A stretch of DNA of 33,662 bases, taken from positions 1 to 33,662 of the forward strand of contig JBBCAX010000049.1 of the NCBI GenBank assembly GCA_051382335.1, read 5' to 3'. Positions 378-33,558 of this stretch are shown one piece after another (position 1 is the first letter of the stretch; every line of letters starts with the position of its first letter). The notes beneath the pieces were generated by a model. It was not told where the DNA came from and ran no database searches. It worked only from the letters and a program-made list of their open reading frames with translations. A program made the translations under genes and the position numbers. Source of the stretch: Deltaproteobacteria bacterium TL4 (lineage in GTDB: Bacteria > SAR324 > NAC60-12).

Positions 378-500
378 GGCTATAGTCATCGTTTCGCCAA
401 AAGGCAGCTATCTTTGAAATCCGGCTTCGACTCCGCTCAGCCTCCGAGTGCGTTCCCTGAGCGAAGTCGAAGGGACATTGGCGAAACGATGACTATAGCC
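378..500. mobile_element. 123-bp MITE (IS1595-like ends) enclosing a palindromic REP-like hairpin
   Basis: Perfect 23-bp terminal inverted repeat GGCTATAGTCATCGTTTCGCCAA (378-400) / TTGGCGAAACGATGACTATAGCC (478-500). Exact 8-bp flanking direct repeat AAAGAAAC (370-377, 501-508). Inner inverted repeat CTTCGACTCCGCTCAG (425-440) / CTGAGCGAAGTCGAAG (457-472), 15/16. GGC ends with an 8-bp AT-rich duplication are typical of the IS1595 family; the family assignment is inference. Confidence 0.88.
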
Positions 501-605
501 AAAGAAACTTATCAGTCCACTATTTCAGTTCAAGGGGTTGGCTGTCAGCAAGTCGGGCAAGGTTCAAGTGAGCAAGTGAACGAACTGAGGAAAACCTGCG
601 GAGTT

Positions 606-1490
606 TTACGGCGTTTCTTTGTATCCCCTGAAGATCTGGAGTTGCCAGTCTTTGTTTTTATATTTTGAAACAAAGCCTTCAACATACAGGATATCATTTT
701 TCTTGAGCGTATTCAGCTTGAGACGTTGTCTTTGCTTTTCAAAAGAAATGATTGGAAAACCTGTTTTCATTTGCGGATGCTTCAGATAGATCAACTGCGC
801 TCCTTGAGAAAGATCCTTGAGCGTTTGAACGGTTCCGTAGGTTTTAAGGAAGTGATTGTTATATTTTGAGGGATCCAGGTGTTCCAGGGCTCGTTGCTGA
901 ACAACAAACCATTTATTTTGTGATGAATAAACGGTCCGTCCTTCAGCCTTGAGGCGAGTCAAGTATTTTTGGCGGGATTGTGGGGAACTCCAAATTCCCT
1001 TTTTATTATTAAACGCAAGGGCTTCGGCCTGAAGATAGACCTCAAAATCGTCAGGCCATTCAAACCTTGTATCAAAAGGGCTATGCCCTTTACGGATAAT
1101 TTCCAAATTCAGATTTTTTTGATTTGAGGTCAGTAAACCTAAAATCCGGTGATAGGTATCGAATTTTTGATCAGGGTTGGTCCACAGCAGCAAGGTGGAT
1201 TGGGTGATCGCCTTTTCCAAAAACCCTTTTGCGGATACGCCAAATCTTAAGTCCTTTCCCTTATGAGAATCCGAGAGTTCCGGAGTATCTACATACCACA
1301 GTCGGATACGCTCCGTTTTAGTTAGTTTTTTGTTTTGATTCAGATCAATATCCAAGGTGTCTCCGTCAATCACTTTTTTCGCATAAGCGGAAACCTTCTT
1401 AGCCTCCCATTTTGCGGGAACGCCCTCTTGACTCCAGCCACTGGGGCCTTGAACCATCACGATGAGTATTAAGAAGCTTATTTTCAACAT
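606..1490 (-). CDS. Secreted thermonuclease (staphylococcal nuclease family) with C-terminal OB-fold-like extension
   Basis: Hydrophobic N-terminal signal; SNase motifs VIDGDT, RIRLWYVDTPE, DTYHRILG, NLEIIRKG, KKGIW. The last ~100 aa are beta-rich (OB-like, inference). Confidence 0.85.
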   Translation of the reverse strand: MLKISFLILIVMVQGPSGWSQEGVPAKWEAKKVSAYAKKVIDGDTLDIDLNQNKKLTKTERIRLWYVDTPELSDSHKGKDLRFGVSAKGFLEKAITQSTLLLWTNPDQKFDTYHRILGLLTSNQKNLNLEIIRKGHSPFDTRFEWPDDFEVYLQAEALAFNNKKGIWSSPQSRQKYLTRLKAEGRTVYSSQNKWFVVQQRALEHLDPSKYNNHFLKTYGTVQTLKDLSQGAQLIYLKHPQMKTGFPIISFEKQRQRLKLNTLKKNDILYVEGFVSKYKNKDWQLQIFRGYKETP

Positions 1491-2455
1491 GGAGGACTAC
1501 CTGGTTTTTCAGTAACGATTTGAAGTTGATCCGCCTTAAGCAGCACCTGCACATGCCCTGATAAACCATTGACATAGACAGAAATATGATTGGTGTTGAA
1601 CCAGTCTCTCAAGCGGAGACTTCTTGGACTGCACCATAAATTTTGGGGAGAGGGGACCAACGCATATTGCGGATGGACCCGTTCAAAGAACAAATCATTC
1701 GCCACCGATTCAACTCCATGGTGAGGCACTTTCAAGAAAGAGGCTTTCAAGTCTTCCAATCCCTGATCATTGCCGGAAATATAATTTCCGACAGGTTTGT
1801 TCAAATCACCCGCAAATAAGATCCGGTGCTTTTGGTACTCCAGCCTCAGGATCAAAGACATATCATTCACATCTGTTTTTCCAACAGGGGTATGAACCCC
1901 GTCAAAAGCATAAAGAATCTTTAAAGTAACCTGATTTCCCAAATCGAAGACTTGTCCCGCTGTCGCAATTTTTAGTTCCGCACCGTGGTCCACGGCCTTT
2001 TTTTGATGAGAGATCACACTTTCATAATGGCATCCCCAGGGGATCTCAAAATCACAACGTTCTTTATCCGGTAAATTAAAATAGAGTTCCTTGATTTGAA
2101 CGCCGTCATTGACCAAAGCGGAAAGGCCTTCATAATGATCCCGGTGCGGATGTGTAATGAACACCTTATCAAAGGAGGAGAGGCCTTTGGCTTCAATAAA
2201 AGGAATCAGGCTTTGTTGCGCTTCGTCATAATATCCCGCATCAATCAAAATCGTTTGCCCGCCTTTGACTTGAATGATATGCGCGTCCCCTTGTAACGCT
2301 CTATTGACGTTGACCATGCTCCACACCAAATCCCCGGACAGAGGTTGCCTGACCCTTTGCAAGGTCGTGGTTGAGGGATCTTTTTTTGAATTTTTAGAAT
2401 CAAGACAGGAAGTCAGGAAAAAAGCACACAAGCATACGGCAGCTATTATTTTCAT
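1484..2455 (-). CDS. ComEC/Rec2-type MBL-fold metallo-hydrolase, predicted lipoprotein
   Basis: Lipobox-like FLTSC; motifs QGDA, LIDAG, THPHRDH, NDMSLILRL, LFAGDL, LKVPHHG. No ComEC membrane channel domain. Overlaps the nuclease start by 7 nt. Confidence 0.82.
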   Translation of the reverse strand: MKIIAAVCLCAFFLTSCLDSKNSKKDPSTTTLQRVRQPLSGDLVWSMVNVNRALQGDAHIIQVKGGQTILIDAGYYDEAQQSLIPFIEAKGLSSFDKVFITHPHRDHYEGLSALVNDGVQIKELYFNLPDKERCDFEIPWGCHYESVISHQKKAVDHGAELKIATAGQVFDLGNQVTLKILYAFDGVHTPVGKTDVNDMSLILRLEYQKHRILFAGDLNKPVGNYISGNDQGLEDLKASFLKVPHHGVESVANDLFFERVHPQYALVPSPQNLWCSPRSLRLRDWFNTNHISVYVNGLSGHVQVLLKADQLQIVTEKPGSPPC

Positions 2456-2654
2456 GGAACAAACCTCAGAGTCCTCTGCGTTTTTGAGTTAAAGCGACAA
2501 CCTACACTAAGGTAATGTAGCAATAATCAAAGCGTAAGTGAAGTGAGGGATAGACATTTCCTCGCTTATTTTGTTAAAGAGTAAATAACGGAGGTATTAT
2601 CGGTTCTCCCACAGGGCTTAAAATTATCGGAAAATCTTTTTCATTGAAAAAATT

Positions 2655-4313
2655 ATGCGAATACATGCACCAGATTTTATAATTCGTCAGATATCCTTAC
2701 TGGTCCTCATGGTTGTCCTCATTAACGCGGGATGTAGTGTTGATGATTCAAACTCAAATGAAAAGGCACTTATTAAATTATCAGCGTCAGCGGTCAGTAT
2801 CCCAGCGGATGGCATTTCAACGGTAACGCTGACGGCCTCAATTTCTGAAGACGCCTCAAAACGAACGATTCGGTTTTTTACAGACAAGGGGAGTTTTATC
2901 GAACGTCAGACTTCAACCGGGTCTGACGTTCAGACAACCAACAGTCTGCTCCAAACTCAGACGAAGGCAGAGACCGATCCTGTCACAGAAAAAAGCGTCA
3001 AAGCCGATCGTTCCGGCAAAGCCTTGGCCACCTTGATCAGCAGCAACTCTGTGGGAACCGCCCACATCGAAGCCACTATTGATGGATATTTGGCTTCAAC
3101 CGCCGTTGATTTTGTCGCTATTGCGGATCCCCTCACACTGAATGTCGCAAACCCCTCGGTTCTTGCTGATGGTGTTTCGTCCACTTTAATCACAGCTACG
3201 GTAAATCCCGGCTTGATCAACCGAACGTTGACTTTCGTCACAGATCGGGGTTATTTCGCTTCTTTGGACGAATCAGGAGCGCGCACACGCAGGCTTACCA
3301 TTAAAACCGACAGTAATGGTTCCGCCAGTACCATATTTTTGAGCAGCACCGAAGTCGGAACCGCTTATATTGAAGCCGTCATTGAAGATTTTCACGCAAG
3401 AACCGTTGTTGAACTGGTTGCCATCTCTGAGCCTTTAGCCTTGAGCGTGGAACAAACAAAAATTTCCGCAAATGGGATGGCTTCGACCTTAGTCAAAGTT
3501 CAAGTCGCGGAAGCGTTCATCAATAAATTATTGACCTTGACAACGGACAGGGGTTCGTTCGGGGCACTGGATGAAACGGGGCAGCGTCTCCACACACTTT
3601 CCATGAACACCGATAGCCAAGGGTTCGCCCAAACAACATTGCTCAGTAGCAGGGATTCAGGTATCGCCTATATAGAAGCCCTCATTGAAGGTTTCCGTGC
3701 CTCAACAACGGTCGAGTTTGAAGCTGTCACCAATCCCTTCTCCTTAAGCCTTGAGCCACACTCTATTCCGGCAGATGGTCTCTCTACGGCAACGATAACC
3801 GTTCAGGTAGAGCCGGGTTTTCGGAACCAACCGCTCCTCTTCAGTACGGATAAAGGTTTTTTTTCGACAAGGACTCCCGCCGTAACCGTCATTCCCAATG
3901 GCGGAGGACAGGCAATAGTCACGTTGATCAGTGGGACTCAAGTGGGAATAGGGCATATTTCAGTAACCTTAAAAGATTTCAATACGCTTGAAAGTTCCTT
4001 GGACTTTACACGCAGTTTGCCAGAATCCCTCATCCTCAATGCTTCCAACGCTACGGTGGCAGCGTATCAAAGTGTTCTCCTCACCGCCACCTTATTGCGC
4101 AGCAGCGGTCAAGCCTCAGAACAAGCGGAGGTTACGTTTTCAACAACCGGAAATCTGGGGCTCATGGACGCACGGGTCTTGTCAGACTCGAAAGGTATCG
4201 CGACAACGAATTTATTCAATCCTGGAGGGACTCCCGGCGGTGTGACGATAACCGCTGCTGTTGGTGAGGGGGAGAAACGGGTTCAGGGTTCAACCGTCAT
4301 TAACTTTGAATGA
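2655..4313 (+). CDS. Lipoprotein with five tandem bacterial Ig-like (Big_1/invasin-type) domains
   Basis: Signal peptide ending NAGC. About 100-aa repeats begin SIPADGISTVTLTA, SVLADGVSSTLITA, KISANGMASTLVKV, SIPADGLSTATITV and TVAAYQSVLLTA, mostly with F/L-x-TD(K/R)G-x-F and TDxxGxA motifs. Confidence 0.8.
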   Translation: MRIHAPDFIIRQISLLVLMVVLINAGCSVDDSNSNEKALIKLSASAVSIPADGISTVTLTASISEDASKRTIRFFTDKGSFIERQTSTGSDVQTTNSLLQTQTKAETDPVTEKSVKADRSGKALATLISSNSVGTAHIEATIDGYLASTAVDFVAIADPLTLNVANPSVLADGVSSTLITATVNPGLINRTLTFVTDRGYFASLDESGARTRRLTIKTDSNGSASTIFLSSTEVGTAYIEAVIEDFHARTVVELVAISEPLALSVEQTKISANGMASTLVKVQVAEAFINKLLTLTTDRGSFGALDETGQRLHTLSMNTDSQGFAQTTLLSSRDSGIAYIEALIEGFRASTTVEFEAVTNPFSLSLEPHSIPADGLSTATITVQVEPGFRNQPLLFSTDKGFFSTRTPAVTVIPNGGGQAIVTLISGTQVGIGHISVTLKDFNTLESSLDFTRSLPESLILNASNATVAAYQSVLLTATLLRSSGQASEQAEVTFSTTGNLGLMDARVLSDSKGIATTNLFNPGGTPGGVTITAAVGEGEKRVQGSTVINFE

Positions 4314-4405
4314 ACACGAATTTTTTTTGTAAAGAGTTTTTCTTTTGAAGAGTTTCCGGATAACCGGATGATCGGAATTTTAGAAAATTAGGGGCAACCG
4401 TGTTG

Positions 4406-4972
4406 TTACAAAAACTTAAGCAGATAGCTTCCGAGAATGTAAAAGAGATCGAGTCCGACTATCCCATAAAAGAGGTATCGCAAAATTTGGGAAAGTTGAC
4501 GTTGCTCCCAAAGAACCAAAGTGCAAATGATGAAAAAACTGTAATGAAAACCAAAAAACACGGTGCTCCCGATGCCTTGTGATAAGCCATAGATCAACGC
4601 ATACCCCAAGCCAGTGCTGATTTCAATCCAAAGAGAACGGTACCCGTAAAAAATGCCACATTGACGACAAGTTCCCCGACCCGCCATAAAAGAAAATATC
4701 GGAATGTTTTCATACCATTTGAGTTGATAACCACAGGCAAAACAAAAGGAGCGTGCGGGATGGGCAATGTTCAAACGACCTTGGGCCACCAGCGTTTTTA
4801 AACGATCAGAAAGCTGGTGGTTGTGGAGGAGTTCCTTTTTTGCCTCGGTTGACAGAAATTGAAGCGGAATGCGATCAATGCACACATTCATAAAACTGCC
4901 GATTGCGGCTCCAAAAACAAAAGAAAAAAACAACTCCATCGCATACAGCAAATTCCACATAGGGGCACTCAT
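4406..4972 (-). CDS. Prepilin peptidase (A24A/PilD) N-terminal-domain protein, short and apparently lacking the peptidase catalytic motifs
   Basis: FGAAIGSFMNVCIDRIP, RSFCFACGYQLKWYENIPIFSF and RGTCRQCG match the PilD N-terminal Cys4 domain. The ORF is only 188 aa with no GxGD motif. The start may be a few codons downstream. Confidence 0.75.
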   Translation of the reverse strand: MSAPMWNLLYAMELFFSFVFGAAIGSFMNVCIDRIPLQFLSTEAKKELLHNHQLSDRLKTLVAQGRLNIAHPARSFCFACGYQLKWYENIPIFSFMAGRGTCRQCGIFYGYRSLWIEISTGLGYALIYGLSQGIGSTVFFGFHYSFFIICTLVLWEQRQLSQILRYLFYGIVGLDLFYILGSYLLKFL

Positions 4973-5227
4973 AAAAAAACTTGGGGTATCCGCATATTTT
5001 TCAAACGATAACTGTTTATTTTCTCAACAAGATAAAGTTAACGCCGTCAATCGGAAGAGGACTCTGCCTTTTAGCACAAACCACCGCAGAGTAACAGTTC
5101 CAAATGTACGGAAATTTCGATTTTCAATTTGCCAAATCGGTTTGATTGCTTCAGAATAAGGCGGGGTGATTTTTTACTTTTCCGATGTTTTCGTGATTAT
5201 GTTCCGGTATGTGGATGAAAAGGTGGT

Positions 5228-8995: not shown

Positions 8996-10159
8996 ATGGC
9001 TGAACAAAAACAATCTAAGCCGCTCGTTCTGATTGTAGACGATACGCCTACCAATCTCACGGTGCTGTCCGATGCGCTAAAATCGGACTATCGCATCAAG
9101 GTCGCAACCCACGGTCAGTTGGCACTGGATATCATTCGTAAGGATAAACCTGTGCTCGTTCTGCTTGACGTGATGATGCCGGGGTTGGATGGATACGAGG
9201 TTTGCCGCAGAATCAAACAGCAACCGGAGACCCAGGATATTCAGGTGATCTTCGTTACAGCAAAGAACGACACTGTTGATGAAGAGGCCGGCTTGAATCT
9301 GGGTGCCGTGGATTACATCACCAAACCTTTTCGGTTGCCCATCATCAAAGCCAGGGTGCGTAACCATGTCAATCTCAAACTGAAGTCTGAGCAATTACAG
9401 GAAAAAACCGATGAATTGGCTCGAAAGAATGAGGAAATAACTCAGGATTTGAAAACAGCGGCAGTGTTACAGTCTCAATTATTCACGGGCTATCGCACTC
9501 CTGATTTTTTAAAAGTAGCGGTGCGTTATCTCCCCCATTCCTACGTTTCGGGGGATATTTACAAAATTTATTCAGATGATGCTGGTCAGTTCAAACTGTT
9601 TCTGGGAGATAGTACCGGACATGGCCTTGCGGCCGCGCTGACAACAATCATGGCCGATATTCTGCTCAGTCAAAAAGCCGATGCGGCTCCTGGCGAAACG
9701 ATGAATTACATCAATGATGCCTTAAAAGCCCATTTGCCTATCGACCGTTTTATGTCAGCCATCCTTCTGCAAATCAGGAAAGATGGGCCTTTGGCGATTG
9801 CCAACGCAGGACATCCGCCCTGCCTGCTGCTACCGGCCAATGGAGAAGAACCTGTCTTGTTGACTGCTAAAAATATAATGCTGGGGATTTTAAAGACCCC
9901 AGAGTTCCAATGTAAAGAAGCCATTTATACCCTCCAGCCTGGAGATCTGGGCCTTCTTTATACCGATGGAATCACAGAACGGGACAATTCAAAGGGAGAT
10001 TTTTTTGGTGATGAACGGTTGATTCAGTTCATGAGGGAACATCGAAACATGGAAGTGACAGCCCTGTTGGAAAAGCTGATACAAGCGGCGGATCAGTTTG
10101 CGGAAGGCAAGGCTCCGGATGATGATGTAACATTGATTGTGTTCCGGTATTTGGGATAA
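8996..10159 (+). CDS. Response regulator with SpoIIE/PP2C phosphatase output domain (RsbU/RsbP-like)
   Basis: REC VLIVDD...LLDVMMPGLDG...KP; coiled-coil linker; PP2C motifs VSGDIY, GDSTGHG, NAGHPP, LYTDGITE, DDVTL. Confidence 0.92.
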   Translation: MAEQKQSKPLVLIVDDTPTNLTVLSDALKSDYRIKVATHGQLALDIIRKDKPVLVLLDVMMPGLDGYEVCRRIKQQPETQDIQVIFVTAKNDTVDEEAGLNLGAVDYITKPFRLPIIKARVRNHVNLKLKSEQLQEKTDELARKNEEITQDLKTAAVLQSQLFTGYRTPDFLKVAVRYLPHSYVSGDIYKIYSDDAGQFKLFLGDSTGHGLAAALTTIMADILLSQKADAAPGETMNYINDALKAHLPIDRFMSAILLQIRKDGPLAIANAGHPPCLLLPANGEEPVLLTAKNIMLGILKTPEFQCKEAIYTLQPGDLGLLYTDGITERDNSKGDFFGDERLIQFMREHRNMEVTALLEKLIQAADQFAEGKAPDDDVTLIVFRYLG

Positions 10160-15009: not shown

Positions 15010-15837
15010 CTAAAGACCTCTCATTGAGGCAAGACGGTTGATGATGTTGCCATAAGTTTCCGGAAACAAACGTTGAATCAGATCCATAGCCTGGGCATCA
15101 GGACCAATCAGAATTCTTTCTTTTTCACGGGTAATGCCTTTGATGATTTTTTTTGCGGTATCCTCCGCGGAGGTCATCGTCGCGTTATCAAAGGACGTCG
15201 CGAAAGATTTGGAATCACGGGATTTCCCATCAATGCTTTTATAGGCGCGAGCGTTATGCGCGATCCGGGTTTTGATGCCACCGGGATGAATGCATGAAAC
15301 TTTAACGGAGGTGCCTTTGAGTTCCTGTTTCAAAGATTCCGTGAAGCCTTTGACGGCAAACTTTGAAGCGTTATAAACCGCCATGGTCGGAACTGCGACA
15401 ATGCCAAAAATACTGGAAATATTCACAATATGGGCTTCCTCTTGTTCTTTGAGGTGTGGCAGAAACGCTTTGGTCCCATAAACAACGCCCCAAAAATTAA
15501 TGCCCATCAACCACTCAAAATCCTCATACGAAACATCCTCAATCGTTTGAGCCACGGCGACACCGGCGTTATTGATCACAAGATGCACATCATGGTGCTG
15601 ATCAATCACCTCTTCAGCAAACTGATAAACCGCTTCTTTTTTAGAAACGTCCAGGGGATGGGCACTGACCTTGATTGAATTTTGACTGACTTCTTTTCTG
15701 GTTGCCTCCAAGCCTGAAGTATCGATATCCGCAAGCGCGAGATTACAACCTTTTTGGGCTAACTGCAAAGCGAGTTCCCTTCCTATTCCCGAAGCGACTC
15801 CTGTGATCACCGCTGTTTTTCCTTTTAAAGAACGCAT
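15010..15837 (-). CDS. Short-chain dehydrogenase/reductase (classical SDR)
   Basis: TGVASGIG, NNAG, ISS, YNASK, HPGGIKT. The acidic residue in LADID suggests NAD(H) preference (inference). Confidence 0.93.
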   Translation of the reverse strand: MRSLKGKTAVITGVASGIGRELALQLAQKGCNLALADIDTSGLEATRKEVSQNSIKVSAHPLDVSKKEAVYQFAEEVIDQHHDVHLVINNAGVAVAQTIEDVSYEDFEWLMGINFWGVVYGTKAFLPHLKEQEEAHIVNISSIFGIVAVPTMAVYNASKFAVKGFTESLKQELKGTSVKVSCIHPGGIKTRIAHNARAYKSIDGKSRDSKSFATSFDNATMTSAEDTAKKIIKGITREKERILIGPDAQAMDLIQRLFPETYGNIINRLASMRGL

Positions 15838-15913
15838 CGTTTTGACTCCTCTTCTCGTTTATTTGTTATAGACATTCATTCAAATAAATTCATTTGAGTC
15901 TAACCCAGACTGT

Positions 15914-15989
15914 GGAGTGCCAAAGCTTGCTTTGGCCAAAGCCCAAGAAAGGCCTTCGCCTTTCTGGCCAAAGCAAGCTTTGGCACTCC
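15914..15989. repeat. REP doublet (REPIN-like) of a GGAG-headed palindrome, possibly within a degenerate MITE (~15871-16056)
   Basis: Perfect 25-bp inverted repeat GGAGTGCCAAAGCTTGCTTTGGCCA (15914-15938) / TGGCCAAAGCAAGCTTTGGCACTCC (15965-15989). Each arm is itself a hairpin GCCAAAGC-TT-GCTTTGGC. Imperfect outer inverted repeat with an 11-bp perfect core AAATAAATTCA (15882-15892) / TGAATTTATTT (16035-16045). Confidence 0.82.
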
Positions 15990-16083
15990 TGAAACAGCGT
16001 TGTTTCAACGGATCTCGCAACAGGATGAGTTTTCTGAATTTATTTTCATGAGTATGACACCCTTTGAAACTTATTGCCAGAAT

Positions 16084-16869
16084 TCAGTTTTTCCTACTGG
16101 CAAGTACAGCCGCCCCTAATGCTCCCATCAATTGAGGATCTTCATTAAGAGGTTCAATTTCAACTCGTAAATATTGATGCAGAGATTGGAGCAAGCCTTT
16201 GTTTTTAGCGCAGCCTCCGGTCACCGTGACATTAGGTTCGATGCCGGCTCTTTTCGCCATGCCAAAAACACGTTTGCAAATGGAAGTATTGATTCCCGCG
16301 GCAATATCCGCTGGCGGAACACGGCTGTTCAGTAAGCTGATCACTTCGGTTTCAGCAAACACGCTGCATTGAGAGGTAATGGAAACGGTTTTTTTTGAGT
16401 TTAAGGAGAGTGCGGCTAACTCCTCCAGCGACATTTGGAAGATACGAGCCATGGCCTCAAAAAAGCGTCCTGTTCCCGCGGCGCATTTATCGTTCATGGC
16501 AAAATCACGCACGGTTCCGTTCTCATTCACCGAAATCGCTTTGACATCTTGTCCTCCGATATCGATGATCGTTCTTATGGTAGGATTGCAGTGATGCGCG
16601 CCAACAGCGTGACAGGTAATTTCAGAAACGTTCTCACCCGCAAAAGGAATTTCGGTTCGCCCATAACCGGTACCCACCAAAAATTTTAAGTTTCGATAAC
16701 CGTCTAAATCCTCAATTGGACGACACGCTTCCTCAAGAACTTTGGTTGCCGTTTCTACAGGATCAATTCGACTGGGAATGAGCGCGCTTCCCACAATTTT
16801 GCCCTCTTTAATAATAACGGCTTTACCTGTGGTTGACCCCACATCACAACCTCCATAATAACCTGACAT
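16084..16869 (-). CDS. 2-hydroxyacyl-CoA dehydratase activator (HgdC/HadI-like; BadF/BadG/BcrA/BcrD ASKHA ATPase)
   Basis: DVGSTTGK, TGYGR, EITCHAVG, IDIGGQDVK, MNDKCAAGTGRF, SQCSVFAETEVIS, TGGCAKN, GALGAA. Confidence 0.93.
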   Translation of the reverse strand: MSGYYGGCDVGSTTGKAVIIKEGKIVGSALIPSRIDPVETATKVLEEACRPIEDLDGYRNLKFLVGTGYGRTEIPFAGENVSEITCHAVGAHHCNPTIRTIIDIGGQDVKAISVNENGTVRDFAMNDKCAAGTGRFFEAMARIFQMSLEELAALSLNSKKTVSITSQCSVFAETEVISLLNSRVPPADIAAGINTSICKRVFGMAKRAGIEPNVTVTGGCAKNKGLLQSLHQYLRVEIEPLNEDPQLMGALGAAVLASRKN

Positions 16870-16894
16870 AGTCTCTCCTTTGATAATTTATTTT

Positions 16895-17032
16895 GGCCTC
16901 CGGTCTAAGCCGGGACAGTTGGAGTACCAAAGCTTGCTTTGGCCTGGAACGTGAACGTCTTGCTTGCTCCTCGCCAAAGCAAGCTTTGGCACTCCATTGA
17001 GAGCGGTCCTGTCCCGCTTTAGACCGGAGGCC
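16895..17032. mobile_element. 138-bp MITE (IS1595-like ends) enclosing a GGAG-REP doublet
   Basis: 24-bp terminal inverted repeat GGCCTCCGGTCTAAGCCGGGACAG (16895-16918) / CTGTCCCGCTTTAGACCGGAGGCC (17009-17032), 22/24. Exact 8-bp direct repeat TTTATTTT (16887-16894, 17033-17040). Inner REP arms at 16921-16943 and 16973-16995 belong to the same family as 15914-15989. Confidence 0.88.
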
Positions 17033-17051
17033 TTTATTTTTGTTTTTTTGT

Positions 17052-18524
17052 TTAACGATCGAGACGCTCCGCTTTCATAATCGTTTCCATGAATTCTTCA
17101 ATTTGTCGTTTCATTGAGGAAGGGTGTGAAATCCTGGAGTCGCATAAATCATACTGCAGAAAGAACAGCGGAATATTCCGTTTCCGGCATTGCTCCCGGA
17201 AAATACCGTTCAAGGCTTTGGTATTTTTGCAGCCAACATGCTCCGCCATAAAAATCATATCCAGGTCAAAATGTTCGTAAATGTGGAAGAGATCTGAAAA
17301 AAAGTTTTCAGAAGGTCCTCGGGTATGACGCGCCATCGGACCTTCCATAATGATCTGTGCCAGCCCATCCAGCATGGAATCAGGCGTTGCGGTATCAATA
17401 AAGCCGTGACGCTGGAAAGACATCATATCCATGATAAACGCAATGCCATAAGTGCTTTCCGTCCAATTGTATAAATCGGAAAAACTGGGAGTTGTGGGAT
17501 TCCACATCAAGGCTCGGAAGCGTTCTTCTTTGAGTGCGCCTTGTCCTCGCTCACGAAGTTGAGTTGCGAGTTTCAGCAGTTTTTTGAAATACTCAATGCT
17601 CAACGCATAGCCGGGAAAAAACTGTGAAGTAATCAAGTGCCCAAAAATAATCGGCTCTCCCGCCATGGGCGCGGGACGTTCCCGAAGCATCTCCCAAAGC
17701 TCCAATTCCAGTTCCTTGGCCTGATTACGCATTTCACAAATTTCACGTAACCGGTCCCAATCCATGCGTCCCGGTGTTTTTTCTTCCAACCAGGTGATCA
17801 TGCGTTTTAACTCTCCTACGAAATAGGTCCTCGCCCGTTCATTTTTGAAATTATGTGGAATATCCAGGCGAAACGCGGGAGCCTGGAGTTCCCGTTCCAT
17901 GACGGTATAGGAGGCCATCCCGCTATCACAGGGAAGATTCGACGCGACAATAGCGACAGGCGTAGGCATGTGTTTCATCAAGGTCATGCCCATGGTGGTT
18001 TTAGGCAAACTACAGGTGTCGGGCGCAATGCCTTCATTTTCCGCGGCATCAATATACGCTTCAGCAATGGGCGGAAATACCAAAGGCATGACCATGCCTC
18101 CAAACTCCCCCATCCAGGGTTTTAAGCCCATGGCCATCAAAATTTCAGGAGGAACCATATCTTCATGAAGCACGACTTTATCAGGATGCGTAAAAACGCC
18201 ATCCAGTAATTCTTCCATCACTTGTAATAATAATTTCGCAACCATCGCATTGGCTTCACGGTATTCTCCTGTGCGTCGATGAACCAGTTTAAAATAAAGG
18301 AATTCAAGGTTGATCACAAATTCCTTCAGCCAGGGGTAGCGCTTCATGTTTTTGGTGATTTCAGAAACTCCGTGTCTTCTGCTGAAATTTCCAACTTCTT
18401 TCAAGAGTTGAAATTGATATTTGGCGTTAATACTCAAGTCATTGACATTTTCCTGGAAGGATTTGTGTTTTAAATTTGCCACTCCCAGATCAAATTCGGT
18501 TCTTAAAATTTCAGCGATATCCAT
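17052..18524 (-). CDS. 2-hydroxyacyl-CoA dehydratase family subunit (HgdA/HadB/BcrB-like) with N-terminal extension
   Basis: Putative [4Fe-4S] ligands APDTCSLPK, NLPCDS, HVGCKN; FRLDIP; C-terminal DSR...IEEFME; adjacent to the activator and partner subunit. Confidence 0.85.
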   Translation of the reverse strand: MDIAEILRTEFDLGVANLKHKSFQENVNDLSINAKYQFQLLKEVGNFSRRHGVSEITKNMKRYPWLKEFVINLEFLYFKLVHRRTGEYREANAMVAKLLLQVMEELLDGVFTHPDKVVLHEDMVPPEILMAMGLKPWMGEFGGMVMPLVFPPIAEAYIDAAENEGIAPDTCSLPKTTMGMTLMKHMPTPVAIVASNLPCDSGMASYTVMERELQAPAFRLDIPHNFKNERARTYFVGELKRMITWLEEKTPGRMDWDRLREICEMRNQAKELELELWEMLRERPAPMAGEPIIFGHLITSQFFPGYALSIEYFKKLLKLATQLRERGQGALKEERFRALMWNPTTPSFSDLYNWTESTYGIAFIMDMMSFQRHGFIDTATPDSMLDGLAQIIMEGPMARHTRGPSENFFSDLFHIYEHFDLDMIFMAEHVGCKNTKALNGIFREQCRKRNIPLFFLQYDLCDSRISHPSSMKRQIEEFMETIMKAERLDR

Positions 18525-18578
18525 AATGCACTCTGTAATAATTGATAGCTTAAAACGGTCCTACTTTCCCCTTCCGCC

Positions 18579-18761
18579 CAATACCCGTGAATGAAATCAT
18601 GTTCGTAGTTCCGCCTTTAGGCGGTAAGCCTTGCAGAAAAGCCGCCTAAAGGCGGAACTACGAACTTTTCACAATGACGTCAGCAAAACTCGCTATAATT
18701 TTATAAGTGGCTGTAATTAAAATACTTATTATTATTTTCCAAATTTCATTCACGGATATTG
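18579..18761. mobile_element. 183-bp MITE (IS4-like ends) enclosing a GTAG-REP doublet
   Basis: 19-bp terminal inverted repeat CAATACCCGTGAATGAAAT (18579-18597) / ATTTCATTCACGGATATTG (18743-18761), 18/19. 11-bp flanking direct repeat CCCCTTCCGCC (18568-18578) / CCCCTTCCACC (18762-18772), 10/11. Inner perfect 24-bp inverted repeat GTTCGTAGTTCCGCCTTTAGGCGG (18601-18624) / 18642-18665. Confidence 0.85.
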
Positions 18762-18771
18762 CCCCTTCCAC

Positions 18772-19902
18772 CTATTTCCCCATACTTTCGAGAAAGGCCT
18801 GGATACGGGTTTTGAGTTGTCCTTCACCGGACAAGCGATATTCGCGTTCCAGGCGTAGAATGGGAATATTGGTTTTACGAAGTGTGGTCACTAAAGGACT
18901 GGATTCAACCCCCCATAAATCACAGAATTTCATGGTTTGAATCACAATGCCCTCAACCCTGTATTCTTCCGCAGTCTTAAGAATTTCTTCAATACGCTCA
19001 TCAAAATTATCCATCATGCGAGGACAAGAGGTTTTTCGCAGTTTATGTTCAGCAAGAGTTCGGATCGGGTCTTCCTCTTTTTCCGGAATCGGGTTCAAGC
19101 CTGGAATCGAGCCTGTACAGTACCGATCCGCAACGATTAAGCCTCCCATTTTTTCAATCACGTGCAAATAACCGGGATCATCCAATTCACTCCCCACCAC
19201 CATCAATCGCGCTCGAAAAGGGGTTTCCAGTTTTCGCGTCTTCAAGTCCTCCCGAATCTTTTGAAAAGCGGGCATCATTGGAGCTAGAGGTGTGACGGAA
19301 CCGACTTTGAGCAGCGTATGGAATTCAGTCCCCGTTAAAGGCGGCTGGTCCTGTTTACGCAATTCACCAATGGAACGCATGAGTGCCAAATATTGGTTAC
19401 GTTCGCTGATGGACTTTCGGAGGGCCTCCGCCCCAGTATTCACGCCAAAGCAGGAGGCCAGGGATTGTGCCAGGGTTTGAAGCTCTTCAACATACCACTT
19501 CAAGGCGGCATCCGTGGTTTTATGCGGAAGATCCAGCATATACGCAAAGGCTGGCTTAGTAAGATACACCAGGTTATCATACAAGCGTCTTAAATGATCA
19601 CAACTCGCGGTAAAGACCCAACCGTCAATATGCTCGTAGCGGAAATCCATGGCATATTCCAGCAAACTGCGTGTGTAAGAACAGGTCACATTTGAAAGAT
19701 AAGTATCCGCCATTTCTGTCCCCGCGACACCGGGTGCGGACATCCTTACAGGAACCAGCCCCTCCACCGAAAGTAACGCTTCCGGAATATAACTACAGGT
19801 ATAACCGATCAGGCGTTTTCCTGCGGCCTTTGCTTCGTCTAAATAGGGATTACTTGTATCCGCAATGAGGTCATTAAAAGACTCGGGTATCATTGATTGC
19901 AT
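18772..19902 (-). CDS. 2-hydroxyacyl-CoA dehydratase family subunit (HgdB/HadC/BcrC-like)
   Basis: GYTCSYIPE, TCSYTRS, SCDHLRR, LDLPH, DRYCTG, SCPRM, KFCDLWG, GQLKTRIQAFLE. Confidence 0.9.
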   Translation of the reverse strand: MQSMIPESFNDLIADTSNPYLDEAKAAGKRLIGYTCSYIPEALLSVEGLVPVRMSAPGVAGTEMADTYLSNVTCSYTRSLLEYAMDFRYEHIDGWVFTASCDHLRRLYDNLVYLTKPAFAYMLDLPHKTTDAALKWYVEELQTLAQSLASCFGVNTGAEALRKSISERNQYLALMRSIGELRKQDQPPLTGTEFHTLLKVGSVTPLAPMMPAFQKIREDLKTRKLETPFRARLMVVGSELDDPGYLHVIEKMGGLIVADRYCTGSIPGLNPIPEKEEDPIRTLAEHKLRKTSCPRMMDNFDERIEEILKTAEEYRVEGIVIQTMKFCDLWGVESSPLVTTLRKTNIPILRLEREYRLSGEGQLKTRIQAFLESMGK

Positions 19903-26485: not shown

Positions 26486-26559
26486 GTTTGTTACCTCCAA
26501 GTGACAGGAAGTGAGGACGAATCTGCGTTCACTCACCCCTCGGTTAAAAGAGCTCGATC

Positions 26560-28290: not shown

Positions 28291-28497
28291 GATTTCCTTT
28301 CCTTTGTTCATTAATCATTATACTTGCATGATCACCCCCCCATGAGTATCCCCATAAGGCGCATGATTCTCTGGATATTTTTTTGGTATACACTTTGTTT
28401 ACCGGCGGGGTATACAACAAGTGTATTCAAAATTCAACAACTATTTTGAAACATTTTTAGCTATAAAATAGAGGGAATAAGGTTTTAAAAGGAATAT

Positions 28498-28836
28498 TTA
28501 GTCTCGTTTCAGCATCTCTTTGTCGATTTTAATGAGGATTCCGATTTGCTCATCGTTCAATTTCCCGAGAACTTTATGGACAATCATGTGCATCCCCCCC
28601 TTCATGGTTTTGATACCGATGTTGACAATTTTTAAGCCAAAGCTGCTGACTTTCAATTCATTGGGAATTCGCCAAAAGAAGTAATCAACACCAATGTCGA
28701 CTTGCTCCAAGAGTATCTCGATGATCCCCGGAAGATACTGTTGATTGTTTGACGAATCCTGCTCCATTTTTTCAGCAAGGCGTTGAAGTTTATCATATAA
28801 TTCATCGGTAATTGGAAAAGTACAATAGGATGTCAT
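28498..28836 (-). CDS. Hypothetical 112-aa helical protein
   Basis: Non-overlapping ORF with ATG start, on the same strand as its neighbours, filling the gap. No motif recognised. Confidence 0.6.
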   Translation of the reverse strand: MTSYCTFPITDELYDKLQRLAEKMEQDSSNNQQYLPGIIEILLEQVDIGVDYFFWRIPNELKVSSFGLKIVNIGIKTMKGGMHMIVHKVLGKLNDEQIGILIKIDKEMLKRD

Positions 28837-28943
28837 AGTTTTATCTCACTCATAATGTCATAATATAGATCATCTCAATGCTCGATTTTGATTCAGATGA
28901 TACGCTCAAAAGGGACAGTATTGATATTGTCAATCATTAAATC

Positions 28944-28978
28944 AATGCGAATCCGAGTGAAGGTCTCACTCGCGCATT
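28944..28978 (-). terminator. Stem-loop immediately after the MerR-family stop codon
   Basis: AATGCG..CGAGTGA-aggtc-TCACTCG-CGCATT bulged hairpin followed on the minus strand by AT-rich sequence; the U-tract is weak. Confidence 0.45.
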
Positions 28979-29733
28979 CAATCCAACTGTTTTTGGATCG
29001 GTGGTAGGGGAAAGGTCTTCAAAAATTGAAGTATTTTCCGCTTATGTAAAATTCCAATCAACTCATTAAACAACGGAATGGCCTCTGTCACCATCCTCCA
29101 GGCCTCATCCACTTGAATGTCACGCATGTGTTCTATTAATAACTGAAATTCTTTAGTAAATAATTCCGAGACCATTTCTTCGTACATGGCCAGATCTTTG
29201 GGAGTTACATTTCGCATTGACGAAAACCCCATGTCTCGTAACGAGGCCCAGATTTTAAGGACTCTCTGATCATCGAACGATAACATGACATTGCCTTGAG
29301 ATTCTTTAATATTCAACAATCCAATTTGCTTCAGTTCCGCTAACTCTTCCTGTGAAACCGATAAATTTTTTAAAACCTCAACTAAGACCGCACGACCCTC
29401 ATGATTAGGGTCTTCGGAACTCAACTTTTGTTTCAAAATCTCCAGCGCAATTTGCTGCCGGTCTGAAAAACCTTCTTCTTGACTTTCCGTCAGTATCGCC
29501 TTAATCGCTTTCAACGGAAGAAAGTGCTGTTCCTGTAACTCCTTGATATGTTTCAGGCGCTCAATATGCTCGGGACCATACCAGGCCATGTTCTTAGCCG
29601 TCTTTTCATGCTCCGGAAGCAACCCTTCCGCAATATAAAAGTGAATCGTCTTTTTACTCACACCGGTCTTGTCCACTAACTCACTTACACGATATCGTTG
29701 TTTTGGCGTGGGAGTTGTTTTTTGAGAAACCAT
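28978..29733 (-). CDS. MerR-family transcriptional regulator
   Basis: N-terminal YRVSELVDKTGVSKKTIHFYIAEGLLP...WYGPEHIERLKHIKELQ...LPLKAIK. Probable start ATG 29733 (AAGGA upstream). Confidence 0.9.
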   Translation of the reverse strand: MVSQKTTPTPKQRYRVSELVDKTGVSKKTIHFYIAEGLLPEHEKTAKNMAWYGPEHIERLKHIKELQEQHFLPLKAIKAILTESQEEGFSDRQQIALEILKQKLSSEDPNHEGRAVLVEVLKNLSVSQEELAELKQIGLLNIKESQGNVMLSFDDQRVLKIWASLRDMGFSSMRNVTPKDLAMYEEMVSELFTKEFQLLIEHMRDIQVDEAWRMVTEAIPLFNELIGILHKRKILQFLKTFPLPPIQKQLD

Positions 29734-29764
29734 GAACATCCTTGTCGCTTATTACCATTAACTA

Positions 29765-29816
29765 TATAGTGTCTAGTATTACTGGCCACTATAGGTACAA
29801 TCATTTTGATTGTCAA
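29765..29816 (-). promoter_or_regulatory. Sigma70-type promoter of the MerR-family gene with overlapping 29-bp palindromic operator
   Basis: Minus strand TTGACA (29816-29811), 17-bp spacer, TATAGT (29793-29788). The imperfect palindrome TATAGTG-TCT-AGTA-T-TACT-GGC-CACTATA (29765-29793) starts at the -10 box and covers the expected +1. Confidence 0.75.
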
Positions 29817-29874
29817 CAAGAAAATAGGGTATCCCGCACTTTTTATATAAATCCTTATCCCAGCTAAAAGCCGA

Positions 29875-31443
29875 TTACGCAATAGTGACTTGTGAACCAA
29901 TGCGTGCGACAATGATCGTAATATCGTCTTTCCATTTTTCTCCTCCATAGTGAGCAAAGGCCGCTTCAAGAATGTGCTCTTTAATTTGTGCGGCGGTCCT
30001 GTTCCCAGACGATTTCAAGATTTGTTTTAACCGTCGAGTGCCGAACATTTCGGCGTTGGAATTGGTATTTTCTGTCAACCCATCCGTATACCAAAGCAAA
30101 ATACTGCCTTCTTGCAGGGGGTGTGTCTTTACTTGCCAGTTAGCGTTTGCGCCAGCTCCAATAGAATAGCTTCGTTGCCTCAATGTCACAAGAGACGTGC
30201 CATTCAGAGTAGCCTCTGATTCCTGAGCAGGGCACCACAGATAAAGAGGACAGTGGGCCGCGCTGATCCAGTGAAAGACCTTATTTTTCAGGTCAATCCT
30301 GGAAAAGAATAAGGTCATGGTATAATGACCCTGTGTTGTATTGAGGACATAGGCGTTCAAGTTTCGAAATAAGTCCAGTGCGGAATCAGGCTCGTTCAGA
30401 GAGGATACCGGTTGATTCTCTACAAAAGCCTGACAAAAACCACTGGTCATTGCGGTCACTAATGCGGCAGGAAGGCCATGTCCTGAGACATCACCAATCA
30501 ACACGTCCAACATTTGTTGTTCCGGGTGATGACGAAAATCGTACCAGTCGCCCCCCGTTTCAGAAGCGGACTGATAAAAAGTGGCAAGATCGAGGTTAGG
30601 ACATTGAGGAACTTGGCGAGGAATGATGAATTGTTGAACGATCTGCGCTGTTTCTAATTCCAACTTTGCGCGTTCCATGGATTTTAAGGATTCACGGGCT
30701 TGAACCAGATTACGAATCATGTCATTAAAGGCTTCTTCCAGAATTTTTAGCTCATTCCTTTTAATAATTCCAATATTGATCTGAACGTTTTCCAAATTCT
30801 CCATGCGTAACTGTTCCGCTGCGAGAGCGAGTTTGGAAAGGGGGCGTCCCAACACATAATGGGCACACCCGATGAAAATAAGCCACAACGCTGCTGTTTT
30901 CAAAATGGAATTTACCAAAATAAATAAAAATCCATACTTAATCTTATCGATCACAATATCCGTGCTGGAGTACAAAGTGATTCGACCCACATTTTTTTCA
31001 AAAGAAGGGCTTTCTCGATAAATCAAAGGAAACGATTTTTGGAACAAAGCATAGACCAGTTTTTGTTGGATAGGGTGTTGCTTTTTACCATCGTTCGAAA
31101 TCCATCGTTCCCCTAATTCATTGGATGTTTCTCCGATTTGAAAAAAAAGGGAGGTTTCATCCTGGATGGTAATACCCTTGATTGAAGGTAATTTCAGCAT
31201 TCCTTTGACAATGTCCTGTAACTGTTCTTCATCCACATTCCATAACGCGTGAGCAATTCCGTTTTCAAATGTCTGATGGAACAGTTCCAAGTCTTCAATG
31301 ATCTCTTGCTTGGTACGCACATATTCTGCAAACATATGAATCAGAGTCACACTAATTGCGACAGCGATATAAAAAGAAAAGACAATCTTTAATAACTGGA
31401 AAGATACGGAGTTATGGATCTGAACTTTAGTCTGGTTCTGCAT
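29875..31443 (-). CDS. Membrane sensor SpoIIE/PP2C phosphatase (TM-periplasmic-TM-HAMP-PP2C)
   Basis: Two TM segments; HAMP (GRPLSKL...NELKILEEAFNDM); ETGGDWYD, GDVSGHG, WYTDGLTE, DDITII. Confidence 0.9.
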   Translation of the reverse strand: MQNQTKVQIHNSVSFQLLKIVFSFYIAVAISVTLIHMFAEYVRTKQEIIEDLELFHQTFENGIAHALWNVDEEQLQDIVKGMLKLPSIKGITIQDETSLFFQIGETSNELGERWISNDGKKQHPIQQKLVYALFQKSFPLIYRESPSFEKNVGRITLYSSTDIVIDKIKYGFLFILVNSILKTAALWLIFIGCAHYVLGRPLSKLALAAEQLRMENLENVQINIGIIKRNELKILEEAFNDMIRNLVQARESLKSMERAKLELETAQIVQQFIIPRQVPQCPNLDLATFYQSASETGGDWYDFRHHPEQQMLDVLIGDVSGHGLPAALVTAMTSGFCQAFVENQPVSSLNEPDSALDLFRNLNAYVLNTTQGHYTMTLFFSRIDLKNKVFHWISAAHCPLYLWCPAQESEATLNGTSLVTLRQRSYSIGAGANANWQVKTHPLQEGSILLWYTDGLTENTNSNAEMFGTRRLKQILKSSGNRTAAQIKEHILEAAFAHYGGEKWKDDITIIVARIGSQVTIA

Positions 31444-31461
31444 CAAAAATCTTGATTGAGG

Positions 31462-31920
31462 TTAGGTTTTTTCTTCCAGGAACTCCAAGGTTTCTTCATC
31501 TTCGGGAGCCATTTGATTTCCACATTGATGACATCGGACTCGAGGAAGCCTCAAAGCGGGTTTCACATCCACACGATGGATGAGAACAGGTTTATACGAA
31601 TTACAATTCTCACAAACGAAAGCGATTTCAAATGAAACAATTTCAACACCTTCTGAAAAAGAAAGCGCAATATTGCAAGCTTCGACTACAGTTTCTGAAC
31701 ACCTTTCATAGACAATTTGTTTTCCTTTACTTTGAAGGCGCCTTAAGTTTTCAATCCATTTTTTCAATCCTATGGAATTAATTTTACGAATTCCGTGTAG
31801 ATTGAGAATCAGCTTGGTATCAGGGCTTTCGTGTAAGGGGGATAAATCCATGAACTCATCAATATTACCCGATAGCACCCATGTTCTATCATCTGTTGAC
31901 GTAATTTCCAGTAAAGACAT
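31462..31920 (-). CDS. STAS-like (anti-anti-sigma type) protein with C-terminal zinc ribbon
   Basis: LSGNIDE, LILNLHGIRKINSIGL (Ser at the STAS phosphorylation position); CENC...CHQC. Probable start ATG 31920 after AAGGA. Confidence 0.72.
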   Translation of the reverse strand: MSLLEITSTDDRTWVLSGNIDEFMDLSPLHESPDTKLILNLHGIRKINSIGLKKWIENLRRLQSKGKQIVYERCSETVVEACNIALSFSEGVEIVSFEIAFVCENCNSYKPVLIHRVDVKPALRLPRVRCHQCGNQMAPEDEETLEFLEEKT

Positions 31921-31934
31921 AACCATCCTTTGGC

Positions 31935-32882
31935 TTAAAGTTGCTTGTTTTTAATAAAACAATTAATAGAACATTGCGATTTGTTCCATCTTCTGTTCTT
32001 GGTATGAATATGAACGATAAACTCGGTTGAGTTTCCAGGGTCCAAGTTAAGGACCAAGGAAGTGACTTTTCTGAGAATCAAGACAAGTCCCAGCCCTGCA
32101 CCCCCCGAAGTGTCTTCAATTTCCATGTGAGTCTTTGCGAACTTACGAACCGCACTGTAGATTTTACTGAGCGACATACTCCCGTATTCATCACGAACGG
32201 AAATAATCATTTGCTCCGGCTCTGACCAGCAATGGACAGATACAAACTTTCCGGTTTCCATTACAATGCTTTTTTGACGATTCCAATGGGAATAACAGTG
32301 TTGCCCTTGCAGGTCCACAGGCGAATGAAAAAAAGAATTGGTCATCAGCTCATCGGAAATCAATTCAATGGAGCGTCGAAATTCACTATTGATATTCAAG
32401 GTGCGGCTCCACTCCGCAATTTCGCTCAAAACCTCGTCTCGCTGTGATGAAGCGTTTAAACACCAGTGTTTGTGGGTTCCTGATACTTTGATGTAAGGCT
32501 CAATCCCCAAAAGAGGTCCCCACAGTAATTTTTTGAGGGTCACAAGCAGCATCTCAAAATGTAAGACCTCTTCATTTTCAACAGCAATCAAGTGCTGGAG
32601 GCTCCATTCTTCACATAAATCTGCTTGAGAAAGTGGAATTCCATGCGCAGAAACAAAAACCAGAATTGCGTCCAATCCCCGTTCTCGCCGTTGAGCCAGC
32701 CACTCTTGACTCAGATGGTCAATGATGATTATAGGGGGCGTTGTCAGCTTCCGGAATTCGGGTTCTGCGATGTGGACACATCCCAAGGACAACGTCGGGA
32801 CTGAGGGAAACTGATTTCTCAGTATTGGCAACAAGAGCTGCTCCATTGTTTGATCTTGGAAACAAATAAAAATTTCAGGCAT
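31935..32882 (-). CDS. GHKL/HATPase-domain protein (RsbW-like Ser kinase) with degenerate receiver-like N-terminus
   Basis: N-box ELISDELMTNSFFH, G1 ISVRDEYGS, G2 GGAGLGL; no HisKA H-box; upstream of the STAS and PP2C genes. Confidence 0.68.
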   Translation of the reverse strand: MPEIFICFQDQTMEQLLLPILRNQFPSVPTLSLGCVHIAEPEFRKLTTPPIIIIDHLSQEWLAQRRERGLDAILVFVSAHGIPLSQADLCEEWSLQHLIAVENEEVLHFEMLLVTLKKLLWGPLLGIEPYIKVSGTHKHWCLNASSQRDEVLSEIAEWSRTLNINSEFRRSIELISDELMTNSFFHSPVDLQGQHCYSHWNRQKSIVMETGKFVSVHCWSEPEQMIISVRDEYGSMSLSKIYSAVRKFAKTHMEIEDTSGGAGLGLVLILRKVTSLVLNLDPGNSTEFIVHIHTKNRRWNKSQCSINCFIKNKQL

Positions 32883-32987
32883 CCGAACTCTAGAACTTAG
32901 AATTTGATAAGATGGATGGTAATGAGCTCAAATTTTTTCCCCATGCGTGGTTCCGTCTTTCATAGATTTATCCGATGCGGAACCTAG

Positions 32988-33128
32988 GTGGCTGTCCGAG
33001 AATACAAGTTGAGCCTAAGTAGGGTGCCGCTTAAGCGAAGCGAGCGCACCAAAAATAAGGGGACCGCAAGCTTTCTGGTGCGCTCGCTTCGCTTAAGCAC
33101 ACCCTACATCACATTCTCGGACAGCCAC
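32988..33128. mobile_element. 141-bp MITE at a CTAG site enclosing a GTAG-REP doublet
   Basis: Perfect 16-bp terminal inverted repeat GTGGCTGTCCGAGAAT (32988-33003) / ATTCTCGGACAGCCAC (33113-33128), flanked by CTAG on both sides (32984-32987, 33129-33132). Inner arms GTAGGGTGCCGCTTAAGCGAAGCGAGCGCACCA (33019-33051) / TGGTGCGCTCGCTTCGCTTAAGCACACCCTAC (33076-33107). Confidence 0.87.
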
Positions 33129-33297
33129 CTAGACGATCAGCCCTTGATCCTAATTTGTATCCATATGCTTTTTAAAGTGTTTTACCAAGTTCCTATCATT
33201 TTTAATTTCAGTTTGTCGACAAGAAATTAACTATTATTTTGAATGTCTGAAATGAAGGCCTTTACAGTTTGCTCCAATTTAAGTTAGATACTATAGA

Positions 33298-33469
33298 GTG
33301 CTTGAAACCTTGAATCCAGGGGATATTTACGGAGAACAAGCCTATCTCGATGGAACGCCGAGTCTCTTTAAGATCGACGTCCTTGAAGACGCGGAAGTCT
33401 ATCCGTTTGAGGATCCCCTGCTTTTAAAAAGCCCGCTCATTCTAAACAATTTATTTTTTAATCCGATCA
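33298..33469 (+). pseudogene. Fragment of a cyclic-nucleotide-binding (cNMP/Crp-type) domain running into a MITE
   Basis: LETLNPGDIYGEQAYLDGTPSLFKIDVLEDAEV matches the LxxGDxFGE...RSAxxxAxxD half of a cNMP domain. The N-terminal half is missing and the ORF tail is read through the element starting at 33470. Confidence 0.55.
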
Positions 33470-33558
33470 GGCCAACGTCATCGTTTCGTCAAAAGGCAGC
33501 AAGCTTTGAAATCCGGCTTCGACTCCGCTCAGCTTGCGAGGTTGTTCCCTGAGCGAAG
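33470..33558. mobile_element. Truncated second copy of the 378-500 MITE
   Basis: Aligns without gaps to 378-466 at 78/89 identities (counted by hand), including the left terminal repeat variant and the inner hairpin. The right terminal repeat is absent within the window. Confidence 0.85.

Follow-up and report, generated by a model that had tools for sequence, protein, structure and literature searches.

REP-type hairpin doublets inside miniature transposon shells of several insertion sequence families in the genome of Deltaproteobacteria bacterium TL4

Bacterial MITEs (miniature transposable elements with inverted repeats) such as Correia/NEMIS, RUP, ERIC and Nezha are, in the passages cited here, short, non-coding and intergenic, share their terminal inverted repeats (TIRs) with autonomous insertion sequences (ISs) and make a target site duplication (TSD) specific to the family (PMC3184786; PMC10969869), and for the Correia elements a site for integration host factor (IHF) is reported (PMC10969869). 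Repetitive extragenic palindromic sequences (REPs) are described by Delihas, in the passage concerned, as being without MITE signatures (PMC3184786), and the cited parts of the work on REP doublets (REPINs) and REPtrons describe inverted REP pairs, GTAG tags and REP-associated tyrosine transposases (RAYTs) whose genes are flanked by the same repeats (PMC3116915; PMC3333891; PMC6006769). The traits of both systems recur in a 33,662-nucleotide stretch of Deltaproteobacteria bacterium TL4 (contig JBBCAX010000049.1, positions 1 to 33,662; this whole stretch is the window referred to below), which belongs to an assembly of 6.59 Mb in 445 contigs. The window holds six elements, E1 to E6, in which a REP-type hairpin doublet (the core) is associated with the TIRs of a MITE (the shell). 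These are real, recurrent composites of known parts, and at least half of the REP-type doublets in the genome lie inside such tiny TIR transposons.

Hairpin doublets hitch-hike in MITE shells

An earlier note, made from the letters of the window, had proposed four complete elements, and all four were recovered at their positions with TIRs, TSDs and inner doublets. E1 (378-500) is a 123-bp MITE of shell family S1 with perfect 23-bp TIRs (378-400 and 478-500) and an 8-bp TSD (370-377 and 501-508), and its core (425-472) consists of a CGTC/CGTTC-like repeat with inverted 16-bp arms (425-440 and 457-472). E2 (16895-17032) is a 138-bp MITE of shell S2 with 24-bp TIRs (16895-16918 and 17009-17032), an 8-bp TSD (16887-16894 and 17033-17040) and a GGAG-headed doublet at 16920-16996. 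The 183-bp E3 (18579-18761; shell S3, with IS4 ends and 19-bp TIRs) encloses a GTAG-containing REP doublet at 18601-18665; its 11-bp TSD (18568-18578 and 18762-18772) has one mismatch, and the TSD of the S3 family is 10 bp long in 15 of 20 pairs. E4 (32988-33128; 141 bp, shell S4, 16-bp TIRs) is bounded by a CTAG duplication (32984-32987 and 33129-33132) and carries a GTAG-headed REP doublet at 33019-33107. E5 (15869-16058) had been called a degenerate candidate; its right TIR (about 16035-16058) is indeed decayed, yet it belongs to a large family, shell S5, that duplicates TA and has about 70 copies. The core of E5 (15914-15989, arms 15914-15938 and 15965-15989) is of one and the same kind as that of E2, which sits in another shell.

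When folded as single-stranded DNA, E1, E2 and E4 reach z-scores of -8.9, -10.8 and -12.3, and none of 200 shuffled sequences equals them. Distinct near-full copies in the genome number 18 for E1, 17 for E3 and 68 for E5, and the exact shell-core pair of E2 is single-copy, its shell S2 being represented by 47 pairs. All six window elements are intergenic and without coding capacity, amid metabolic and signalling genes and in several cases directly past a stop codon; E5, E2 and E3 occupy three consecutive gaps in a run of BadF/HGD-D and acyl-CoA genes (15010-19902), all intact. An Rfam search of the window gave no family at gathering score.

Genome-wide, 233 of 563 detected doublets are enclosed by 371 closed elements, which together span 65 kb of the 1.21 Mb of DNA outside open reading frames (ORFs) and represent 34 shell-core combinations; shell S2 carries seven different cores, and the GGAG core is found in four shells. 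Noisy TIR seeds (S16 and S21) and false pairs (S10 on contig C84, S5 on C255) were dropped before these counts. With an added TA-targeting shell that was found later (80 pairs), 285 of 565 doublets lie in closed shells, as against 4.3% of random non-ORF segments, so that cores occur inside shells far more often than their intergenic density would give, as the reading of the earlier note requires. Of the doublets that the first set leaves out (332), 150 are accompanied by a single TIR at a distance of up to 110 bp (null 6.1%), 6 lie at contig edges, 108 have flanks common to other copies and 68 have unique flanks; free dispersal could thus apply to at most 68 of 565 doublets, namely those with unique, TIR-free flanks. 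The pairing of shell and core arose many times, far above chance.

Each composite was inserted as one unit, with a duplication set by the shell: 8 bp for S1 and S2, 10-11 bp for S3, CTAG for S4 and TA for S5. An empty-site candidate in other copies of the host repeat in the same genome was returned for 53 of 231 TSD-bearing copies, a list in which some lines are self-matches and seven are one nested insertion copied along with its host. Copies of S2, S3 and S6 gave full-length empty-site matches of at least 95%, and for the shell of E4, two nested copies have empty sites shorter by 4 bp. Empty sites with a single copy of the TSD, as predicted, are therefore present, for nested family members elsewhere in the genome rather than for the six window loci, and together with the TSDs they lead to the conclusion of unit insertion. 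An orthologous empty site was not found for the E2 region, which matched 0 of 30 related genomes, the relatives being too distant and none of the same genus. An assembly artefact was ruled out because of the TSDs, the copy-specific variants and the recurrence in other genomes. On seven contigs of G000 (C207, C270, C271, C324, C4, C46 and C87), a cored S2 MITE lies within a cored S18 MITE, a double-nested unit of 320 bp that has spread to seven copies.

Parent insertion sequences, RAYT genes and a third mobile layer

The shells are multi-copy, and for S1, S2 and S3 matching ISs were found. The parent of S3 is a 1,717-bp IS4 element on contig C85 with Nterm_IS4 and DDE_Tnp_1 domains and the TIR, without a hairpin inside; its reading frame on C85 is interrupted by a stop, and a TSD is lacking. 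Members of the IS4 family make TSDs of 10-13 bp. The parents of S1 in this genome are fragmented and encode DUF6399. Shell S2 occurs at no fewer than 113 loci in other genomes, of which 63 have both ends, and six of these are IS elements of 1.7-1.9 kb; the one full S2-ended IS that was scanned (locus L065) encodes a DUF6399 protein of 539 amino acids and has an 8-bp TSD. Between the S1 and S2 DUF6399 proteins the identity is 28-40%, and D, D and E motifs are conserved. As these proteins are homologous, the two GGC-ended shells of E1 and E2, which the earlier note had taken to be unrelated, are one family. The DUF6399 proteins (L065, 509-2128; L130) probably act as the transposases of an IS family of 1.7 kb, with TIRs of 23 bp and a TSD of 8 bp, that extends across several phyla; a weak match to rve (E=3.5e-4) and the D/D/E motifs would fit a DDE enzyme with an RNase H fold. 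We found no paper that names the domain. ISL3 and IS1595 elements had been candidates for the parents of the GGC shells and were ruled out, the parents being DUF6399 elements. Further shells adjoin IS66, ISKra4-like, ISL3 and DDE_Tnp_1 genes, and elements of the first three kinds count as parents of such shells.

In other phyla, 35 of 57 short S2 elements score at least 12 for a hairpin in their interior (one of them an AT-rich false positive), and cored S2 elements outside this genome come from Methylococcaceae, Competibacteraceae and other proteobacteria. Core-less S2 elements of 123-126 bp from Desulfobacterales mostly contain a 9-mer that matches the DnaA-box consensus as quoted in a passage of PMC6006769 (L023, L037, L057, L084 and L089; around position 2201). 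In a gammaproteobacterium, locus L070 is a full DUF6399 IS, and just inside one of its TIRs a 195-bp MITE is nested that has duplicated 3 bp and encloses a G-rich hairpin doublet, a further shell-core pair; L070 was considered as an intermediate with a free REPIN in an IS and rejected, the insert itself being a cored MITE with its 3-bp duplication.

For S4, genome G009 contains ends together with the start of a short ORF, the body of the element not being assembled, and five DDE_Tnp_1 loci of G009 are without an S4 end. Two S4-type IS ends lie head to head across CTAG in the same genome (C35:40196-40231; L157/L159), like a tandem dimer or a circle junction. Viral contigs gave no match to the S4 end and two to the S5 end, both coding and by chance, and in the phylum the S5 end is represented by just single matches with one mismatch, in 2 of 87 other genomes.

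Twelve matches to the Y1 family were found in the genome, and three of the five tested pass the NCBIfam cut-off for RAYTs. The RAYT on C302 scores 80.4 bits on NF047646 (cut-off 80), and the repeat of the E3 core flanks this gene and the RAYT gene on C414. Similarly, broken RAYT genes on C135 and C315 have the repeat of the E4 core on their flanks, and the RAYT genes on C287, C257 and C374 are bordered by other cores. The assignment of the GTAG- and GGAG-headed cores to RAYT-linked REPs is supported for the E3 and E4 cores; for the GGAG core, and likewise for the core of E1, this assembly holds no cognate enzyme. A search for a GIY-YIG partner of the E1 core returned one match, a 658-residue frame that is probably UvrC. 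The coupling of two mobilisation systems, with REPINs hitch-hiking in MITEs, which the earlier note had inferred, is supported by parent ISs, empty sites, enrichment, and RAYT genes flanked by E3 and E4 repeats; preferential targeting of MITEs by REPINs, the alternative that the note offered, is a conjecture. Some shells hold hairpin repeats of other kinds, which may be linked to GxxExxY or DUF559 nucleases.

Several further repeats and domains were observed in G000. Y1/RAYT-like domains lie in frame within long DNA-methylase-like ORFs on C336 (3043-3646) and C345 (near 9252-9449), the former being bracketed by palindromic repeats. On C358 (1739-2232; L138), GGAG-headed units form a tandem array downstream of a small gene with no RAYT adjoining, and two 16-mers with about 190 copies each, outside the studied shells and cores, occur on several contigs and are possibly a CRISPR repeat.

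E6 (33470-33558) had been regarded as a truncated copy; it is instead one part of an S1 MITE, split by an IS110-family element that interrupts the REP arm. The end of this element occupies 33559-33662 on the minus strand, inserted at a CT dinucleotide of the E6 core, and contig C127 (locus L255) carries its body. Junctions at the identical CT of the S1 core number four on the left (C85, C109, C132 and C148) and three on the right (C49, C94 and C146), so that the element sits at this one fixed CT in at least four MITE copies, with a fixed dinucleotide core and neither TIR nor TSD. The body on C127 has DEDD and Transposase_20 domains and matches the IS621 transposase (E=1.6e-31), and from its sequence it is a candidate for a bridge recombinase that has a new repeat as its target. 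Elsewhere in the window, a gene with Invasin_D3 and Big_1 domains (2655-4313) likely encodes a surface adhesin.

Function and origin of the hairpin core

Non-coding mini-transposons with ends from several IS families and a REP-type hairpin pair inside would borrow the matching DDE transposase. The hairpin pair would have been brought in right next to an IS end, or else into a small TIR-TIR shell, with a HUH-type enzyme of its own, acting on single-stranded DNA, as the probable agent. In elements of 100-200 bp the TIRs would have to meet across DNA too short for free looping; ordinary MITEs would rely on an IHF site for this, and their cored counterparts instead on cruciform extrusion or on a protein bound to the REPs. 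Our best explanation, which we consider equally apt to prove right or wrong, is that cored mini-transposons move by a borrowed DDE transposase and that the hairpin has been kept since it helps a short element to move; judged from the sequences, a working role of the hairpin in transposition is plausible. The counts suggest that MITE shells, not RAYTs, would be the main vehicle by which doublets spread in this genome. That a general class exists, in which the REP-type doublet is a working part that replaces the IHF bend, DDE transposases are the main route of REPIN dispersal and RAYTs supply the hairpins without having to spread them, is a tentative proposal that we regard as possible but doubtful.

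In eight subfamilies, variants common to at least three copies were counted as propagated and scored per site, and they amount to 0.027 in the arms (11/402), 0.063 in the TIRs (20/319) and 0.17 in spacers and loops (82/475); arms differ from spacers and loops (p=5e-6), and not from TIRs (p=0.33). Private variants reach 0.20 in arms (79), 0.29 in TIRs (94) and 0.28 in spacers and loops (133). Among propagated variants, REP arms in MITEs are thus as constrained as TIRs, and spreading copies kept their arms. In a post hoc comparison, five of 36 other subfamilies and none of the 48 cored ones contain a perfect IHF consensus (p=0.012), which is present in every copy of S7, S8, S10, the 144-bp form of S14 and S19. 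We read this as two ways in which a short element might bring its ends together.

A number of observations weigh against this explanation. The arms could have been conserved via gene conversion or self-repair of palindromes. No parent transposase was linked in our searches to S4 or S5, which may be IS5-like and IS630-like. No cognate RAYT was found for the GGAG core of E2 and E5, either in this assembly or at eight metagenome loci with that core, and no cognate enzyme for the core of E1 and E6 in the assembly, and therefore the name REP is a resemblance for these two. CGTC-type repeats, which the E1 core resembles, have no transposase according to the passage of Di Nocera et al. on them (PMC3733652). 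In no case was a REPIN seen to enter an ordinary MITE: the standard copies of S10 (24), S7 (12) and S9 (13) are all without a core, and the S9 family (13 copies here) has neither core nor IHF site. No donor loci for the spacers were found in the assembly, and thus the birth step was not traced. Thirteen S2 elements from Desulfobacterales (123-126 bp) have no core and no perfect IHF site. In G088, six core-less S2 shells of 69 bp, one of 63 bp and one of 71 bp lie at separate loci beside cored forms of 124-151 bp, and the 69-bp form argues against a strict need for the core. Bare shells may be mobile by themselves, or they may have arisen where cores were lost in place; since taking out the stretch that separates two 9-bp direct repeats turns the 145-bp form into the 69-bp form, gain and loss of the core are indistinguishable. 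The IHF comparison was devised post hoc and left out the last-found shell, and the absence of the motif from cored elements is not in itself significant, because core-less elements are AT-rich and the motif has a background of 8.3% in AT-rich DNA, compared with 2.7% overall.

The core might also have no role in mobility. Under neutral nesting, hairpins would insert randomly wherever DNA is dispensable, the inside of a MITE would serve as a refuge, a few lucky composites would be amplified, and gene conversion with the many other copies or self-repair of the palindromes would keep the arms uniform. MITEs in this genome do nest in one another and in IS bodies, core-less shells exist and may be mobile, and private variants are also somewhat rarer in the arms (p=0.025). 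We nevertheless consider this unlikely, as enrichment is seen per independent subfamily: among those of up to 300 bp, 48 of 84 are cored by automatic detection, and 21 more have sub-threshold hairpin pairs on reading by eye (about 69 of 84, with 15 core-less), where doublet density would predict a few percent, although this share is inflated by shells S23-S33, which were discovered via their enclosed cores. A core-blind search (TIR plus a TSD of at least 7 bp) gave 84 candidates, and of the 19 families that came from it, 8 include a cored subfamily by automatic detection and 14 when read by eye. Moreover, the hairpin begins within 8 nt of the TIR in 29 of 45 combinations. Distinctly less probable is a collapse of full ISs, in which a REP doublet lands in an IS, RAYT cutting and joining on single-stranded DNA or hairpin slippage removes the unpaired body, and the two paired stems remain; the core would then be the cause of MITE birth and not an aid to movement. 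TnpA-REP cuts single-stranded DNA more than 400 nt to either side of a REP and joins the cut sites, as described in the cited part of PMC3333891, an activity that would be compatible both with insertion beside a TIR stem and with trimming of an IS. Each subfamily has its own TIR variant, and some spacers resemble subterminal IS DNA, for example the 160-bp S2 form when compared with the right ends of DUF6399 ISs. However, cored spacers are specific to the subfamily and have no counterpart in those parent IS bodies that are present, in contrast to the 241-bp S1 form without a core, which matches its parent at 97-100%; no shell-free doublet was found in 45 kb of transposase-like DNA, all matches being cored MITEs or self-matches of one query; several cores are without a RAYT here; and the constraint on the arms after birth is left unexplained.

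Tolerance by the host, with the hairpin acting as a terminator or RNA stabiliser between genes such that cored MITEs last longer and serve as donors, would agree with the intergenic positions, several right behind stop codons, and with reports, in the passages cited, that REPs and MITEs alter transcript stability in other bacteria (PMC3184786; PMC3733652). We think it very improbable, as the gene context of cored and core-less MITEs is alike (convergent in 33 of 179 and 5 of 42, p=0.37; 340 of 2405 for all gaps, by crude ORF calls). It is scarcely credible that the composites descend from TIR-bounded cassettes with REP-RAYT-REP as passenger, from which loss of the gene left TIR-REP-REP-TIR. 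REP-flanked RAYT genes do exist in the genome, and E. coli is described in a passage of PMC3333891 as losing tnpA-REP yet retaining the flanking BIMEs (bacterial interspersed mosaic elements); but not one of the 12 Y1 matches is bracketed by paired TIRs of the known shells, and among the at least 113 S2 loci of other genomes a RAYT match is present at one, about 1 kb from the TIR.

Comparison with described systems

The question of how genomes come to be populated with REP doublets is an old one, and to our knowledge the transposition of REPINs by RAYTs in vivo has not been demonstrated. This genome offers an alternative route, as most doublets lie in DDE-type shells. The constraint on the arms, together with the split between IHF-type and hairpin-type MITEs, leads to a simple test of whether cargo hairpins aid the transposition of short elements, and the analysis also flags an unannotated IS family (DUF6399) and an IS110 element with a new repeat target. 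In the open literature (subscription papers and ISfinder/TnPedia lay outside the search), we found no description of REP doublets inside DDE-type MITEs as a class; the cited sections of a 2024 review hold no passage on hairpin-cored MITEs (PMC10969869), and the words REP, hairpin and palindromic are absent from the accessible part of a MITE survey of 183,232 genomes (10.1101/2024.01.18.576219).

In the passages cited, TIRtrons and the Pseudomonas fusions of REP with a stem-loop are like the present elements in that REP units are coupled, hundreds of times over, to inverted sequences unrelated to them, but the TIRs of TIRtrons flank tyrosine transposase genes, whereas the shells here match DDE-type IS ends and have TSDs (PMC3733652). 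IS621, too, has a CT core in REPs as its target (PMC11208160), and the IS110 element in E6 resembles it and other REP-targeting IS110 elements, as far as that source describes them, in sitting at one CT within a REP-like arm; it differs in that its target repeat itself rides on a MITE, giving a third layer. Unlike in REPINs and REPtrons, most doublets here lie in or beside DDE-type TIRs and were spread with shell-specific TSDs. The difference from other bacterial MITEs is that the interior is largely the hairpin doublet of a separate repeat system, exchangeable among shells of several IS families. In mobile insertion cassettes, finally, IS ends move foreign DNA with a gene as passenger, whereas the passenger here is not a gene but a non-coding, selfish hairpin pair.

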